From: a virus
IMG/VR virus record: IMGVR_UViG_3300027754_000042
DNA length: 64,000 bases
Strand: one strand, 5' to 3'
Part shown: positions 8,947-63,054 of the stretch, piece after piece
Layout of the letters: every line of letters starts with the position of its first letter
Numbering within the stretch: position 1 is the stretch's first letter
The notes under the pieces: generated by a model
Told to the model about the DNA's origin: nothing
What the model saw: the letters and a program-made list of their open reading frames with translations, nothing else
Databases searched by the model: none
Made by a program: the position numbers and the translations under genes

Positions 8947-11244
8947 ATGGCTGAGAAACTGGTATCGCCTGGCGCGCTTGACAAGTTGGCTAAACTGCTT
9001 GCGGCTGAGAACATTGCTGTGGAACATGCACCCGTGGTCACCGCGTCTTTTGATGTTAAGAACCGCGTCCTACGTCTGCCTATGTGGCAGGAAATGACCG
9101 AAAGCTTGTACCATCTGCTGGTGCTTCACGAGGTCGGTCATGCACTGGAAACTCCGTGCGATGGCTGGAAAGGTGCTATTGACGCCGTTGAGGAATCAGA
9201 CGGCCGCCGTGTGTCGCGCACATTCCAAGGCTATTTGAATGTTGTTGAGGACGCGCGGATTGAGCGTAAGATTAAGGCTAAGTTCCCCGGCTCGCGCCGT
9301 GATTTTCACGATGGCTACAAGTGGCTTTTTGAGTCGGACTTTTTCAATGTGAAGTCTACCAATCCCGATGAACTGTCAACCATTGACCGTATCAACCTTT
9401 ACTTCAAGGTTGGTTCTCATATGCAGGTGCCGTTCTCGGATGAAGAACAGGTGTTTGTAAAGCGGGCTGAGGACATCCACACATGGGATGAGGCCGTCCA
9501 GCTTGCTAATGATCTCCTTGCTTTTGCCAAAGAAAAGGCGGAGCAGGAAGAGGAAGACCTGGATGAAGAAAAGCGTGACGTTTCTACCCGCACCCTTGAT
9601 GATGATGACGGCGAGGAAGGTGACGATTGGGAAGATGGTGAAGATGGCGATGAAGGGTTAAAAGGCGAGTCCGATCAAGATGAAGTCGGCGATGGTAATG
9701 ATGAGGACAAACCGAAGCCCTCGCGCCGTAAGTCTGGTGGTCAGATAGAAGAGGCTACCACTGATAAGGCTCTGTCTGATAAGATGCAGGATTTGGTTGA
9801 TCCTACTATGCTCGGCAGGGAACTCCGTTATGTGGTGCTGCCGAAGGATATCAATTCGGATAACTTCATTGTGAAGTATGGCGATATCCTGAAGTATGCT
9901 CAGCATGATATCAACCTCGGCAAGGTGGCCGATTATCAAGCTTTTGCCAATCGTGTGTTCTCCAAGTTCCGCAGCGACAATAACAATGCCATCAATTATA
10001 TGGTCAAGGAGTTTGAAATGAAGAAGGCTGCTACGGCCTATTCCCGTAGCAAGCAATCCAAGACTGGTACCATTGATACGACAAAGATCCATAGCTATAA
10101 GTTCAGCGAGGATATCTTCCGTCGTCTCACGGTACTGCCGACCGGCAAGAACCACGGGCTTGTCGTCTATCTCGACCTATCTGGTTCCATGTCTGGTCAT
10201 ATCCGCGGTGCGGTTGAACAGATGATTACCCTGGCTACTTTTTGTCGCCGTGCTAACATCCCACACCGTATCTATGGTTTCTCGACCAGCCTGGCTGGTG
10301 CAGGTTACAATCATCCTGCTACTCTGAAATACCACGATATGCGGTCTAAAATCAATACGGAATGGCGTAACATTGACAATCGTGTTGACAAGCATTTCGT
10401 ATACCCTAACACGGAACTGTCACTGCTGGAATTGTTTCACGAGGGCATGAACCTGCGTGATTTTAATTTCATGTGTTCCACATTGCTTATTTCAGGTATG
10501 ATCCAGAACTATACCACATGCGATCTGGTTCCTGCTGGCTATAATAATGTGAAGCATTATGTCCGTGATGTTATCTTCAATAAATTCCGTGACCCGTTTG
10601 AGTTCCTCAGCCTTGGATCGACCCCGTTCAATGATTCCTTGATGCTTGGTCGCGATATCATTACCAAGTTCACGAAGGAGAAGAACCTCGAGATTGTGAA
10701 CATGGTAACTATCACTGACGGCGAGTCCGATCATCCATCATATATTCTGCACAAGCAGAATGGGCAACGTGGTAATTTGGCTGGTTCTAGTATCATCCAC
10801 AATAACCGCACCTCGTTCCTGACCGACGAGCATAGCAGGCGCCAAATTCGTTTGAATTTTGAGCATAACCATCAATATACCTCAATGTATGCTAAACTCA
10901 TCCGTGACACGATGAAGGTCAATCTTGTTGGCTTCTACATTACCAACAGTGCCCGTGACGTTACCAGCGGCGCCCAGATGGCTGGGTCAAACTGGTATGA
11001 TGCTGACCTGATGGCTAAGTCTTTCCGTTCTAATCAGTACGCAATTGTGCCTGGCTTGTATGGTCACAATGAGTTCTATTATATCAAGGGCGGCAAAGAC
11101 TTGCGTACCGAGAGTTCTGGCATGGGTGATATTGCTGCGGATTCTTCGAAGGGTAAACTGAAAACCGCGTTTGCCAACGCACAATCCAAGCGCGGTACGT
11201 CCCGTGTTGTGTTGGCTAAGTTTATCGACAAGATCGCCGTATAA
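8947..11244 (+). CDS. CobT-like protein: N-terminal HExxH metallopeptidase-like domain, acidic linker, VWA domain
   Basis: LHEVGH, NVVEDARIE, D/E-rich linker, MIDAS DLSGS and ITDGE. Confidence 0.85.
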   Translation: MAEKLVSPGALDKLAKLLAAENIAVEHAPVVTASFDVKNRVLRLPMWQEMTESLYHLLVLHEVGHALETPCDGWKGAIDAVEESDGRRVSRTFQGYLNVVEDARIERKIKAKFPGSRRDFHDGYKWLFESDFFNVKSTNPDELSTIDRINLYFKVGSHMQVPFSDEEQVFVKRAEDIHTWDEAVQLANDLLAFAKEKAEQEEEDLDEEKRDVSTRTLDDDDGEEGDDWEDGEDGDEGLKGESDQDEVGDGNDEDKPKPSRRKSGGQIEEATTDKALSDKMQDLVDPTMLGRELRYVVLPKDINSDNFIVKYGDILKYAQHDINLGKVADYQAFANRVFSKFRSDNNNAINYMVKEFEMKKAATAYSRSKQSKTGTIDTTKIHSYKFSEDIFRRLTVLPTGKNHGLVVYLDLSGSMSGHIRGAVEQMITLATFCRRANIPHRIYGFSTSLAGAGYNHPATLKYHDMRSKINTEWRNIDNRVDKHFVYPNTELSLLELFHEGMNLRDFNFMCSTLLISGMIQNYTTCDLVPAGYNNVKHYVRDVIFNKFRDPFEFLSLGSTPFNDSLMLGRDIITKFTKEKNLEIVNMVTITDGESDHPSYILHKQNGQRGNLAGSSIIHNNRTSFLTDEHSRRQIRLNFEHNHQYTSMYAKLIRDTMKVNLVGFYITNSARDVTSGAQMAGSNWYDADLMAKSFRSNQYAIVPGLYGHNEFYYIKGGKDLRTESSGMGDIAADSSKGKLKTAFANAQSKRGTSRVVLAKFIDKIAV

Positions 11245-11265
11245 ATACAAAGCAAAAATGAGGGG

Positions 11266-11294
11266 TTGACAAATCCCTCATTACCAACTACAAT
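11266..11294 (+). promoter_or_regulatory. sigma70-type early promoter (late box TATAAATA also at 11240-11247)
   Basis: TTGACA-N17-TACAAT. Confidence 0.75.
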
Positions 11295-56793: not shown

Positions 56794-56822
56794 TTGACAA
56801 TCCCGTCCCGACCATATAAAAT
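56794..56822 (+). promoter_or_regulatory. sigma70-type promoter
   Basis: TTGACA-N17-TAAAAT. Confidence 0.7.
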
Positions 56823-56841: not shown

Positions 56842-57045
56842 ATGCAATTTTTAGCCAAACCTAATCTAAATAACACCACTGGTCAGAAGGTGTTCGATAC
56901 GTTAGCCGAGGCCGTTAAGTACCTAGAATACAAAACTGGGCACAAAATGGACTTTGTTGTCGATAGAAAGACGAAGGTAAAAACCTATGACTGGGAAATC
57001 ATCGGTAAGCTCAAGCGGATCAAAGCGCAACCCGATTGCGATTGA
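56842..57045 (+). CDS. hypothetical protein
   Basis: SD GGAG. Confidence 0.6.
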   Translation: MQFLAKPNLNNTTGQKVFDTLAEAVKYLEYKTGHKMDFVVDRKTKVKTYDWEIIGKLKRIKAQPDCD

Positions 57046-57187
57046 TTTGGCTACTACTAAATACCATGCTCGTGTCGTTGCATCTCGCAAAGGCTACAAG
57101 CGTAAAGGTCGCGTAGCTCAGCTGGATAGAGCAACGGATTTCTACTCCGTGGGCCGAGGGTTCGAATCCTTCCGCGACCGCCACTAA
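56987..57187 (+). CDS. ArfA-like basic peptide reading through tRNA-Arg
   Basis: KRNPIAIDL...RV...K.GYKRKG resembles ArfA; SD GAAGGT 8 nt upstream. Confidence 0.45.
   Translation: MTGKSSVSSSGSKRNPIAIDLATTKYHARVVASRKGYKRKGRVAQLDRATDFYSVGRGFESFRDRH
57107..57183 (+). tRNA. tRNA-Arg(TCT)
   Basis: Cloverleaf, loop TTTCTAC, CCA. Confidence 0.95.
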
Positions 57188-57203
57188 CAAAGAGGTTGAC
57201 AAG

Positions 57204-57569
57204 GTGACAAAGATCGTTTATAATGGTTGCTTCGGTGGCTTTGGTTTGTCCGATGCCTGCATTCGTAGATACCTTGAGATAAAGGGTGTCCCTTTTACCG
57301 AGGAAGAGTCCGAAGTTAGTTTTCGCAATGTCCGATTCCGTATCGGTACTAGCGTAATGAATGAGGGTGAATTTTTCAATGATTGGAATATTGAGCGGAC
57401 AGATCCTGTTCTTGCTCAGGCCGTAGAGGAACTTGGTAAAGCTGCGTCTGGCTATTGTGCTGACCTGTGCATCCGTGAGTTAGCACCTGGTACGCGGTAC
57501 ATTCTGCGAGAGTATGACGGTTCCGAATGGATCGAAACCGAAGATGAAATGGAATGGAGTGTAGCATGA
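57204..57569 (+). CDS. conserved phage protein
   Basis: KIVYNGCFGGFGLS, RTDPVL, EYDGSE. Confidence 0.8.
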   Translation: MTKIVYNGCFGGFGLSDACIRRYLEIKGVPFTEEESEVSFRNVRFRIGTSVMNEGEFFNDWNIERTDPVLAQAVEELGKAASGYCADLCIRELAPGTRYILREYDGSEWIETEDEMEWSVA

Positions 57570-57909: not shown

Positions 57910-57987
57910 CCTCCGTTGGTGTAGCGGTCCAACATACCCGCCTTTCAAGCGCGGAGATCATCGGTTCAAATCCGATACGGAGGACCA
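57910..57987 (+). tRNA. tRNA-Glu(TTC)
   Basis: Cloverleaf, loop CTTTCAA, CCA; irregular anticodon stem. Confidence 0.9.
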
Positions 57988-59570: not shown

Positions 59571-59645
59571 GCTCTTGTACGCATCTGGTGAAGCGACCCC
59601 TCTGTCTAAGGGGTGAGGAGGGTTCGATTCCCTTCAAGAGCGCCA
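59571..59645 (+). tRNA. tRNA-Asp(GTC)
   Basis: Loop CTGTCTA, G73, CCA. Confidence 0.92.
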
Positions 59646-59665: not shown

Positions 59666-60628
59666 ATGCAGCCTGTTGCAGTCTTTTGTAAAGAACCAGA
59701 ACTATCTGTTTATTGGACACTCACAGATTTCTGCAATTTTAGTTGCAACTATTGTCCATCTTTTCTTCATAGTGGTGAATATCACAAAGGTGTATCGCAA
59801 GGATTTCCTACTGACGAACAGATAATAGCATTTGTTGATAAGCTTGAAGAGTTGGCTAAAACTCGCAGACTTGATGTTGTGTTAAGTGGCGGAGAACCAA
59901 CTTTGCATCCTATGCTACCCTACATTGTTTCCAGATTGCGTGATAAATGCATATTGTGTATAACGACCAATGGTTCGCGAGGAAATGATTTTTGGAAAAG
60001 TATCCTTCCTATTTCAGCCGTTCAGTTATCTCTTCATCCAGAGTTCACAAAATCTAATAAGGTCAATAGTCTCTCAAGAATTATTATAGATAGTGGAACT
60101 AACTTGAGGTACAATCTATCGTGTGATCCTAATAATTGGGAAAAAGCAATGGCTTTATATGATGAATTAGATGACGAGTTTAAAGTTTTTGTTACTCCAA
60201 AAGTCTTGCAGCATTGGGATAAAAACGATAAAATAAATCGCACGACTTATAGATACAGCAGGGAACAATATAACTGGATATCAGACACATTAAAAAAATA
60301 TGAAGATTATATTGCAAATAACAAAAAAAGAGAAACTAGGTCTAACCCTAAAATGATCTTTTCTGATGGGTCAACTATCTCAGCAATGAAACTTGGACTT
60401 ATAACGCTGAATAATTGGCACAATTTCGAAGGATGGAAATGCCATGTTGGGTCGGAATCCATTCATGCTTCATATTCCGGTGATGTTTTTGCTGGAGTGT
60501 GTGGTTCAAAATTATTAGGAAAGATTGATAATTTTGAATTATTTGATGACTATATAATCTGTCCTAGACATCGCTGTACATGTCCTTCGGATATTAAAGC
60601 GAATAAGCAAATAGTTTTGCCCCTGTAG
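59666..60628 (+). CDS. radical SAM protein; stop codon inside tRNA-Leu
   Basis: CNFSCNYC, SGGEPTLHP, TTNG, C-terminal Cys cluster; SD GAAGGA. Confidence 0.88.
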   Translation: MQPVAVFCKEPELSVYWTLTDFCNFSCNYCPSFLHSGEYHKGVSQGFPTDEQIIAFVDKLEELAKTRRLDVVLSGGEPTLHPMLPYIVSRLRDKCILCITTNGSRGNDFWKSILPISAVQLSLHPEFTKSNKVNSLSRIIIDSGTNLRYNLSCDPNNWEKAMALYDELDDEFKVFVTPKVLQHWDKNDKINRTTYRYSREQYNWISDTLKKYEDYIANNKKRETRSNPKMIFSDGSTISAMKLGLITLNNWHNFEGWKCHVGSESIHASYSGDVFAGVCGSKLLGKIDNFELFDDYIICPRHRCTCPSDIKANKQIVLPL

Positions 60629-60710: not shown

Positions 60711-61169
60711 ATGCAAAAGATGATCGTGCTTGACAATGTGTTTGATCCTGTTATACTGGAACAGTTGAAAGCGTTTGATTATGGTCCGCCAATGCCACAG
60801 CGTTGGTACGATTACGGCGTTAGCCCATTGCATGAAAAGATCCTCGATATCGCGAAGGAGCATTTTGATCTATCGCAGACAACTGGTTATGAAATGTGGG
60901 TCAATCAAAAAGCCGTTGGTTGGCATTTTGACCACGATGAGTACATATATAAGCGAACAGAGGAACTGATATTTCCTGCTGTGAGCATCGTGTACTACGC
61001 ACACATCGAAAACATGCAAGGTGGTGATTTCACGTCCGAGAGTTTTCGATGTACGCCTAAGACAAATAGGTTGGTCATGTTCTCTTCTGACATTTACCAT
61101 GCTGTGTATGATTACACAGGTACACGATTTGCAATTAGTATGAATCCGTGGAATAACAGGCCCGTATAG
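60711..61169 (+). CDS. 2OG-Fe(II) oxygenase; stop codon inside tRNA-Leu
   Basis: WHFD, GG, PKTNRLVMF, H.V, R. Confidence 0.85.
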   Translation: MQKMIVLDNVFDPVILEQLKAFDYGPPMPQRWYDYGVSPLHEKILDIAKEHFDLSQTTGYEMWVNQKAVGWHFDHDEYIYKRTEELIFPAVSIVYYAHIENMQGGDFTSESFRCTPKTNRLVMFSSDIYHAVYDYTGTRFAISMNPWNNRPV

Positions 61170-61251: not shown

Positions 61252-61848
61252 ATGCAGAAATTAAATTTGTTTTCAACACCAGTAGCAATTTTTGATTTGC
61301 CAGATTTTGAAAGAATCAATAAAATTATTTTAGATGGCAATCTCAAAGGTGTTGCTGAGCAAAATGGTTCAGATACTTTTGAGTATTCACAAGACAGAAA
61401 TATCTGGAGTCATAGATATAATGAAGGTATAAATATTCTTCATGATTTCTTTTTGGAATCTGCTGCCAAATATGCAACTGAATTTTTTGAGATGGAATAT
61501 AAACCAGATTTCTTTAGACATGCTAGAGGGTGGATTAATTTTTGTAAATATGGGCAAGAATATAGATTTCATAGTCATCGAATGACTACGATTGCAGCCA
61601 CTTATTATGTGGATGTAGGAGATAAAGGTGGGATCATTCGACTACTCGATCCTAGATCGACGTTAGGTTGGATTAGTCTTAATCCTAAACATTATAATGT
61701 GTTCAACTATAAGCCAAAAGCTGGACAGATGATTATGTTTCCTGGGTGGCTAGTTCATCAAGTGTCGCACAATCAAACCGATAAAGATCGTGTGGCAGTG
61801 ACAACAAATATGAATCTTATTCAGAAGCACTATGCTACCTTAGTGTAA
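61252..61848 (+). CDS. TIGR02466-like 2OG-Fe(II) oxygenase; stop codon inside tRNA-His
   Basis: LFSTP, WIN, HSH, DPR, FPGWLVH.V, R. Confidence 0.85.
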   Translation: MQKLNLFSTPVAIFDLPDFERINKIILDGNLKGVAEQNGSDTFEYSQDRNIWSHRYNEGINILHDFFLESAAKYATEFFEMEYKPDFFRHARGWINFCKYGQEYRFHSHRMTTIAATYYVDVGDKGGIIRLLDPRSTLGWISLNPKHYNVFNYKPKAGQMIMFPGWLVHQVSHNQTDKDRVAVTTNMNLIQKHYATLV

Positions 61849-61918: not shown

Positions 61919-61993
61919 GATCCTAGAGCATGACTGGCTATGCGGGTGTCTCTAAAACATCGAATACGGGTTCAAGTCCCGTTAGGATCACCA
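61919..61993 (+). tRNA. amber suppressor-type tRNA (anticodon CTA)
   Basis: 7 bp acceptor GATCCTA/TAGGATC, loop CTCTAAA, TTCAAGT T-loop, A73, CCA. Confidence 0.85.
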
Positions 61994-62538: not shown

Positions 62539-62632
62539 GGGTGAGTTGATGCTATGGCGTGTGCATCCCCGGACTGTAAATCCGGTCCCTATGTGGTAAA
62601 CAATGTAGGTTCGACTCCTACCTCACCCACCA
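62539..62632 (+). tRNA. tRNA-Tyr(GTA), enlarged D arm
   Basis: Loop CTGTAAA, long variable region, CCA. Confidence 0.88.
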
Positions 62633-62978: not shown

Positions 62979-63054
62979 GCCGTCTAAGCTAATCTAGTGA
63001 AAGCGCCTGCCTGAAGAGCAAGAGAGCTTGGAGCGTAACCAAGAGACGGCACCA
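62979..63054 (+). tRNA. tRNA-Phe(GAA), divergent
   Basis: Acceptor GCCGTCT/AGACGGC, loop CTGAAGA, T-loop AGCGTAA, CCA. Confidence 0.82.

Follow-up and report, generated by a model that had tools for sequence, protein, structure and literature searches.

The locus described here lies in a stretch of 64,000 nucleotides (nt) of viral DNA (IMG/VR record IMGVR_UViG_3300027754_000042), referred to below as the window, which means the whole stretch that was analysed. It consists of a short open reading frame (ORF) related to the ribosome rescue factor ArfA that runs, without a stop codon of its own, directly into the gene for tRNA-Arg(UCU). The locus is from a freshwater T4-like phage, the window's DNA polymerase placing it among the T4-like myoviruses. 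Its features, in window coordinates, are as follows:

56794..56822, + strand: sigma-70-like promoter, TTGACA, 17 nt, TAAAAT (11/12), a consensus match only; precedes the 67-codon gene
56842..57045, + strand: 67-codon upstream gene, its 3' end overlapped by the arfA-like ORF
56974..56977, + strand: Shine-Dalgarno-like AAGG, 9 nt ahead of the ATG; AAGGAG in many relatives
56987..57106, + strand: arfA-like ORF, ATG start, 40 sense codons, no stop codon of its own, net charge of the product about +9
57023..57106, + strand: conserved ArfA-like core, residues 13-40 (KRNP ... Y-K-R-K)
57106..57107, + strand: expected RNase P site at the mature tRNA 5' end, coinciding with the end of codon 40; predicted cleavage
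57107..57183, + strand: tRNA-Arg(UCU) with CCA encoded at 57181-57183; ARAGORN tRNA-Arg(tct), Rfam tRNA 68.1 bits
57185..57187, + strand: first in-frame stop, TAA, reachable only by reading an unprocessed transcript across the whole tRNA

A preliminary description of this DNA, made from its letters alone, had pointed out that the ORF enters the tRNA in frame, and the geometry bears this out: the 40 codons that begin with the ATG at 56987 occupy 120 nt (57107-56987), so that base 1 of the tRNA found by both ARAGORN and Rfam is the first codon position of the arfA-like frame. The peptide quoted there corresponds to residues 13-40 of the ORF. With 10 Lys or Arg and 1 acidic residue among its 40 positions, and 5 Lys or Arg among the last 8, the product is a small peptide with a Lys/Arg-rich tail, as ArfA is. 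The ORF sits in the +1 frame over the last 59 nt of the 67-codon gene, and its core is clear of this overlap except for a 5-codon extension of the upstream gene that is specific to the window's subgroup. The zero spacer between ORF and tRNA leaves no room for a separate tRNA promoter, and the tRNA would therefore be transcribed through the ORF; a promoter scan found no promoter-like site between the upstream promoter and tRNA-Arg, and the promoter at 56794-56822 presumably drives a joint transcript of the 67-codon gene, the arfA-like ORF and tRNA-Arg. Two elements inside the ORF were considered and rejected. As an internal tRNA promoter, a TTGCGA-16-TAAATA look-alike lacks the key final T and is not conserved, and no candidate passes the scan; as an RNase III-type hairpin or terminator, there is only a weak 5-base-pair hairpin at 57026-57040 that is not conserved in close relatives. 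The arfA-like region folds no better than shuffled sequence (z = -0.02).

Using the flanking genes as unbiased probes, 44 loci carrying the upstream gene were sampled from viral and metagenome collections, mostly lake metagenomes. The open +1 frame meets tRNA-Arg(tct) at one and the same ...R-K/G-R-V-A-Q junction in 20 loci, which represent 17 distinct DNAs and 15 distinct peptides; homologues thus likewise abut a tRNA, a point that the preliminary description had proposed to check. This junction persists across a synonymous divergence of about 0.6, the only indel being an in-frame insertion of three codons at that point (L054). Within the non-overlapping codons 16-39, the ratio of non-synonymous to synonymous change (pN/pS) is 0.37 in the arfA-like frame versus 2.20 and 1.39 in the other two, and the variable sites are distributed 14/13/25 over first, second and third codon positions, with all 25 third positions varying. 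The arfA-like frame is stop-free in 17/17 distinct DNAs, the other frames containing stops. The substitutions that separate the closest relatives at 57020-57045 either leave the peptide of the arfA frame unchanged or exchange Ile and Leu, and in the frame of the upstream gene they amount to one nonsense and three non-synonymous changes. Among cultured phages, a search for close DNA relatives matched only the tRNA. A chance ORF is ruled out by conservation, pN/pS and homology.

The start signals point the same way. The ribosome-binding site and ATG of the arfA-like ORF are embedded in a conserved K-x-K-T-Y-D-W-E stretch of the upstream gene, which is of uncharacterised function and has homologues in the 44 loci, by way of synonymous choices in the K-x-K-T-Y-D codons. 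AAGG, often extended to AAGGAG, stands 7-9 nt 5' of the ATG in all 23 distinct upstream 25-mers (23/23) from arfA-bearing loci. The four loci from which the ORF is deleted show AAA in place of AAG in two cases and, again in two, TAC in place of TAT, which removes the ATG. The start signals are thus under selection, and their retention with the ORF and relaxation without it argue for independent initiation. The upstream gene itself ends 5-6 codons earlier, at a TAA, in most relatives; in the window and one close relative it is extended past this usual TAA (57028-57045) by a T-to-C change (TAA to CAA) that is a synonymous CGT/CGC exchange in the arfA frame. Taken together, the conserved frame and junction, the pN/pS values and the kept start signals therefore identify 56987-57106, on comparative evidence, as a genuine conserved phage gene, ArfA-related and stop-less, that keeps its junction with the tRNA.

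The tRNA-Arg is functional in all lineages, judging from 14 aligned homologues in which 10 of 21 stem pairs carry compensatory changes and none is broken; a G7-to-A change, for example, is offset by its acceptor-stem partner. The position of the in-frame stop is not conserved. The preliminary description had placed the first stop just past the CCA, which is correct for the window but is confined to its subgroup, where read-through would give 66 residues; in most relatives a TAA in the anticodon loop ends the read-through at 52 residues. The tRNA-encoded tail accordingly measures 12 or 26 residues, and it is frame-shifted in one database protein. The portion of the frame that lies inside the tRNA follows the constraints of the tRNA and not those of coding. 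Public collections hold 42 proteins that are this ORF read on into the tRNA, nearly all of them unnamed 'hypotheticals' of 52 or 66 residues.

Kinship with ArfA is carried by a sister lineage (L015 and eight other distinct peptides) in which the ORF begins at the same ATG in the same upstream gene, contains KGKGSY and is closed by a stop codon in the usual way, no tRNA being present. These positional orthologues pass the Pfam ArfA family (PF03889; gathering threshold 25.5 bits) with 34.8 bits, or 33.6 bits in a six-frame search, and match the PDB chains of E. coli ArfA over residues 12-43 (E ~0.0015). An hhalign comparison of the fused and KGKGSY forms gives a probability of 99.4% with a single 3-residue gap at the missing K-G-S; the window peptide reads R-K-G-Y-K-R-K where KGKGS(Y) would be expected. 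Since the overlapping gene dictates the first 12 residues, and these contribute to the score, a core-only hidden Markov model (HMM) of 28 positions was built from the fused form. It was searched against 1,395 stop-to-stop ORFs of the window as decoys and ten Pfam-positive ArfAs of unrelated origin, namely those of phages Cr30, Kabachok and RXM, one that stands alone in a further phage record of 150 kb, three from Pelagibacteraceae bins, one from a Pirellulales bin and two sister-lineage cores. All ten (10/10; E 4.6e-11 to 0.01) ranked above every decoy, the best of which reached 0.047.

Both the release-factor-side strand and the basic tail contain positions shared with ArfA. Natural members of the ArfA family that are 35-39 residues long finish 4-7 residues past a conserved aromatic residue, and a peptide ending at Y+3 would therefore be nearly full length for this branch. 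E. coli ArfA is disordered off the ribosome and needs Ala18 for the activation of RF2; in an ungapped alignment the equivalent position is variable in the phage peptides, and an invariant phage Ala lies one position earlier. The nearest other named family is the uncharacterised DUF7230 (PF23876; threshold 27 bits, 42-position model), to which relatives score 12-26 bits and the stand-alone relative P0042 27.8 bits, the window giving no hit; the Cr30 ArfA hits both families. These comparisons place the window peptide in the ArfA lineage, on a divergent branch whose KGKGS turn has been shortened by three residues.

Some of the ArfAs encountered in this way deserve mention in their own right. Caulobacter phage Cr30 (KF301602.1, approximately complement 11139-11291; L021:1450-1602) contains an unannotated 50-codon ORF in an apparent intergenic gap that scores 27.2 bits against Pfam ArfA. 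Peptides of 35 residues with ordinary stops pass the same model in Pelagibacteraceae bins (L066:1001-1108 and L067:995-1102) and in a Pirellulales bin (L064), and fall outside the usual beta- and gammaproteobacterial range; the contigs that carry them may be chromosomal or phage-derived.

The best explanation of the locus, to which we assign a probability of about 0.6, is that an RNase P cut yields a non-stop message for an ArfA-like rescue factor gated by transfer-messenger RNA (tmRNA). Every tRNA 5' end is made by RNase P, so the processed upstream RNA would end at 57106, the third base of Lys-40, without a stop. The ArfA-like peptide would be started by its own ATG and Shine-Dalgarno sequence within the 3' end of the preceding gene, and the cut at 57106/57107 would leave a message whose last base is the last base of codon 40. 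Ribosomes on this cleaved message would stall at its 3' end, where trans-translation by the host tmRNA, and probably by a two-piece tmRNA of the phage itself, would tag the peptide for degradation. Beyond the capacity of tmRNA, the 40-residue peptide would be set free through ArfA/RF2 or ArfB; on further stalled ribosomes it would then act as ArfA does, settling in the vacant mRNA channel and bringing in a release factor. By analogy, a message ending on a codon boundary would be an ideal substrate for both trans-translation and ArfA. We infer co-transcription, cleavage, stalling, tmRNA gating and rescue activity, and with them the steps that follow transcription. The parallel drawn in the preliminary description with E. 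coli arfA agrees with a review of the system: the gene is translated from a non-stop mRNA truncated by RNase III or a terminator, and its product receives a tmRNA tag, which it avoids only if trans-translation is saturated (PMC8012679). ArfA works on ribosomes with no more than about 3 nt beyond the P site (PMC8012679).

A tmRNA is encoded within this phage lineage. Two near-complete relatives carry circularly permuted two-piece tmRNAs of the alphaproteobacterial type (RF01849; 107 and 114 bits, cut-off 50), whose tags end in YALAA and RLAA:

L080:1451-1840, - strand: two-piece tmRNA in G002
L079:1515-1881, + strand: two-piece tmRNA in G004

One of the two tmRNA-bearing relatives has the fused form, with 94-96% identity to the window across the locus, and the other a stand-alone ArfA. 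The standard tmRNA model gave only cross-hits to tRNAs, and it was the alpha-type model that matched. No protein with an RF-1 domain (a phage release factor or ArfB-like protein) was found in four relatives. The tmRNA type, together with the nearest ArfA relatives, which come from phages of Caulobacter, Brevundimonas and other Alphaproteobacteria and from Pelagibacteraceae bins, suggests an alphaproteobacterial host. The range of ArfA is given as beta- and gammaproteobacteria, and such a host would lie outside it (PMC8012679).

Several observations weigh against this account, some bearing on the identity of the peptide and others on the meaning of the missing stop. By the Pfam threshold and the KGKGS motif, the window peptide is not an ArfA member in good standing. 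Whether taken as 40 or 66 residues, it has no Pfam ArfA hit at E up to 10; the family search that had been proposed thus succeeds with the KGKGSY orthologues and the core model but fails with the window peptide itself. None of the 15 fused-form peptides hits Pfam ArfA (0/15), and a profile of the fused form reaches ArfA in neither Pfam nor the PDB. KGKGS, whose absence had already been remarked upon, is missing from the window peptide and from all fused forms (15/15). Length is a further difficulty: the 1-40 fragment of ArfA has no activity, the ribosome-bound factor shows 46-48 ordered residues (PMC8012679), and by alignment the phage peptide would end at about E. coli ArfA residue 42. The bare pattern, moreover, is within chance, since open frames of at least 30 codons enter many of the window's 20 tRNAs, and the significance of the stop-less ORF comes from its conservation. 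Two further searches were negative: the window peptide had no ArfA match in Pfam, NCBIfam or PDB (phmmer), and a six-frame Pfam ArfA search of the fused-form record G002, a 154-kb relative, returned nothing. Direct family assignment of the window peptide was rejected, its best hits being ribosomal proteins L23 and L14 at E ~1, which were taken as chance.

As to the junction, the preliminary description had held that ordinary stops in homologues would speak against its proposal. Such stops are found in the sister lineage and in other phage and bacterial homologues, though not at the 20 fused loci, and the non-stop design is consequently not obligatory. The fusion has also been lost at least three times, the gene staying intact each time with a stop 9-12 codons on: by replacement of the tRNA, 11 nt of the original surviving as G-R-V-A codons (L025), by insertion of an HNH endonuclease gene exactly at the junction (L047-L049, L061), and by deletion of the tRNA (L050). 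In a FastTree tree of 174 nt, which is rough and carries no support values, the stop-bearing variants lie among the fused forms. The R-K-G-R/K ending typical of the family is obtained once the first two tRNA codons (G, R) are added, a hint that a degree of translation into the tRNA could be of importance. The inserted HNH-type gene (L047:1640-2440; also in L048, L049 and L061) has as its own stop the TAG at tRNA-Arg positions 8-10.

The same absence of a stop ahead of the following tRNA is seen in three unrelated enzyme genes of this tRNA cluster:

59666-60628: radical S-adenosylmethionine (SAM) gene, stop TAG at positions 8-10 of tRNA-Leu(UAG)
60711-61169: 2-oxoglutarate (2OG)-Fe(II) oxygenase gene, stop TAG at positions 8-10 of tRNA-Leu(CAA)
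61252-61848: second oxygenase gene, 2OG-FeII_Oxy_5, stop TAA at positions 13-15 of tRNA-His

Six clear protein genes of the window lie directly 5' of a tRNA, and 4/6 have no stop before it, the other 2/6 stopping 7 nt before. Tight packing is thus a serious rival explanation of the missing stop and can alone produce the layout. On this alternative, which we regard as possible though rather unlikely, the ArfA-like gene is real and its missing stop a neutral by-product of the packing of the tRNA cluster, the peptide being made mainly from unprocessed transcripts and ending at the first stop in or past the tRNA, at 66 residues in the window and 52 in most relatives, with no tmRNA-linked gating. 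The layout at tRNA-His is kept in relatives in a different frame, the second oxygenase of L069/L070 ending at a TAG at tRNA-His positions 8-10, and the persistence and diversification of ordinary-stop relatives and of fusion-loss variants with 9-12 extra residues is as neutral packing would have it; so is the fit of the tRNA-encoded G-R to the C-terminal consensus of the family. However, the tRNA needs 5' maturation, so cleaved non-stop copies necessarily arise; the length, frame and sequence of the tail are set by the tRNA, so it is not selected as protein; and the tail would lengthen a 40-residue peptide by 30-65%, whereas in the enzyme genes a stop is reached within the first 8-15 nt of the tRNA. 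RNase P would likewise render the three enzyme messages non-stop, and the phage would then make several non-stop messages itself.

A second alternative, which we consider quite improbable, accepts the descent from ArfA and supposes that the small basic peptide is no longer a rescue factor and might instead, for example, target host ribosomes to block or mark them, rival tmRNA-SmpB in occupying the empty mRNA channel, or act on RNA. The K-G-S deletion, the failure to reach the Pfam ArfA model, the uncharacterised state of DUF7230 as the nearest other family, and a probable alphaproteobacterial host, where ArfA has not been described (PMC8012679), would all fit such a change of role, but the positions shared with ArfA span the release-factor-side strand as well as the basic tail, and the known rescue factor ArfT is only about 40 residues long and also lacks the ArfA motifs (PMC8012679). 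Least credible is the proposal that the segment has no initiation of its own and is joined to the upstream 62-67-residue protein by a +1 frameshift near its stop, giving a fusion with a basic ribosome-binding tail: the ORF does lie in the +1 frame and in most relatives its core starts exactly at the end of the upstream gene (TAA within the R-N codons), but this fusion was rejected because every locus with arfA has the ATG and AAGG(AG) whereas those without it have lost them, the upstream stop of the window's subgroup has moved five codons later with the arfA frame unchanged, stand-alone homologues with their own starts occur in other phages and in bacteria, and no conserved slippery or stimulatory element was seen.

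Returning to the proposed RNase P-generated non-stop synthesis, the closest known system is ArfA itself (YhdL, PF03889; E. coli and other beta- and gammaproteobacteria), which is likewise a small basic peptide and shares the K-x-N start of the core, the aromatic-R-x-R-V strand and the Y-x-R-K tail. In both cases normal termination would be impossible after processing of the transcript, and synthesis should by analogy depend on ribosome rescue. The phage message, however, would owe its truncation to RNase P, cutting out a tRNA at one set codon boundary, in contrast to the hairpin inside the ORF of ArfA; the phage peptide has no hydrophobic C-terminal extension, no KGS of KGKGS and no K-H motif; and the present gene is phage-borne, starts inside another gene, has a probable alphaproteobacterial host and, in the window, encodes a peptide that is sub-threshold in Pfam. 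The ArfAs of Brevundimonas phage Kabachok, Citromicrobium phage RXM, Caulobacter phage Cr30 and the sister lineage, like those of Pelagibacteraceae, belong to the same KRNP-type branch as the fused form and are 35-50 residues long, and the L015-type genes share the identical position inside the same upstream gene. Unlike the fused form, all of these ArfAs retain KGKGS/F-Y, are recognised by Pfam ArfA and terminate at a normal stop codon with no tRNA; they are known only as annotations, the Cr30 copy lacking even that. DUF7230 is a further candidate relation, relatives of the window peptide scoring near its threshold.

BrfA of B. subtilis and ArfT of Francisella are also small release-factor-dependent rescue peptides, and BrfA too is made from a non-stop mRNA (PMC8012679), although neither has a detectable sequence relationship to the phage peptide and BrfA is truncated by a terminator. 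In mitochondrial tRNA punctuation, excision of a tRNA similarly sets the 3' end of the upstream mRNA and can leave an incomplete stop codon, but that system is organellar, its stops are completed by polyadenylation, and it has no link to a rescue-factor gene. Non-stop mitochondrial mRNAs are known. Phage genes annotated as ArfA exist, the RXM genome paper giving one of them a single sentence (PMC8953757), and phage tmRNAs are known (PMC5648845). Our literature search found no paper on the function of phage ArfA, on an arfA truncated by tRNA processing, or on DUF7230.

The surroundings of the locus offer some further observations. A conserved 121-codon gene comes after tRNA-Arg, and a perfect sigma-70 consensus (TTGACA, 17 nt, TATAAT; 12/12) at 57196-57224 overlaps its GTG start (57204); the same TTGACA lies 3' of the tRNA in distant relatives. 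In more distant relatives (L005:3350-3500 and L006:3350-3500) tRNA-Arg(UCU) is placed after the 121-codon gene and not before it, with a TTGACA-17-TACTAT promoter of its own and no ArfA-like ORF upstream. Within the tRNA cluster, Rfam adds a tRNA at 62979-63051 (39.2 bits) that ARAGORN does not list, and the tRNA-Asp (59571-59645) and tRNA-Tyr (62539-62632) of ARAGORN are missing from the Rfam gathering list. Two tRNAs with anticodons UCA and CUA, at 57910-57987 and 61919-61993, are called as selenocysteine/pyrrolysine (SeC/Pyl) tRNAs by ARAGORN and as ordinary tRNAs by Rfam and are conserved in relatives. They are potential opal and amber suppressors, and read-through by suppressors would raise the number of ribosomes reaching mRNA ends; the large genes of the window read normally under code 11.

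A broader and more tentative proposal, which we think rather doubtful, is that the phage lineage runs a two-tier rescue programme, composed of the two-piece tmRNA and the ArfA-like factor gated by tRNA excision, because its own tRNA-packed genes, at least four with the rescue gene included, become non-stop. The peptide would then release the products of these genes untagged and keep ribosomes free during infection. The codons read by tRNA-Arg(UCU) are classically linked to stalling, and the pairing of the rescue gene with this particular tRNA may not be accidental.

ArfA is the textbook case of a gene made only from a stop-less message, its product accumulating when tmRNA is saturated. What would be new here is that the same non-stop end state is reached by a third route, the excision of an abutting tRNA, and in a virus, with a predicted cut site fixed to the nucleotide. 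For annotation, the finding means that the public 'hypothetical proteins' of 52 or 66 residues carry translated tRNA as their C-termini. If the proposed mechanism is true, phages would manipulate ribosome rescue with an ArfA-type factor of their own alongside their own tmRNA, and the processing of a tRNA could control the translation of the gene next to it. The ArfA lineage would then extend past the beta- and gammaproteobacteria to phages of probable alphaproteobacterial hosts and to Pelagibacteraceae.

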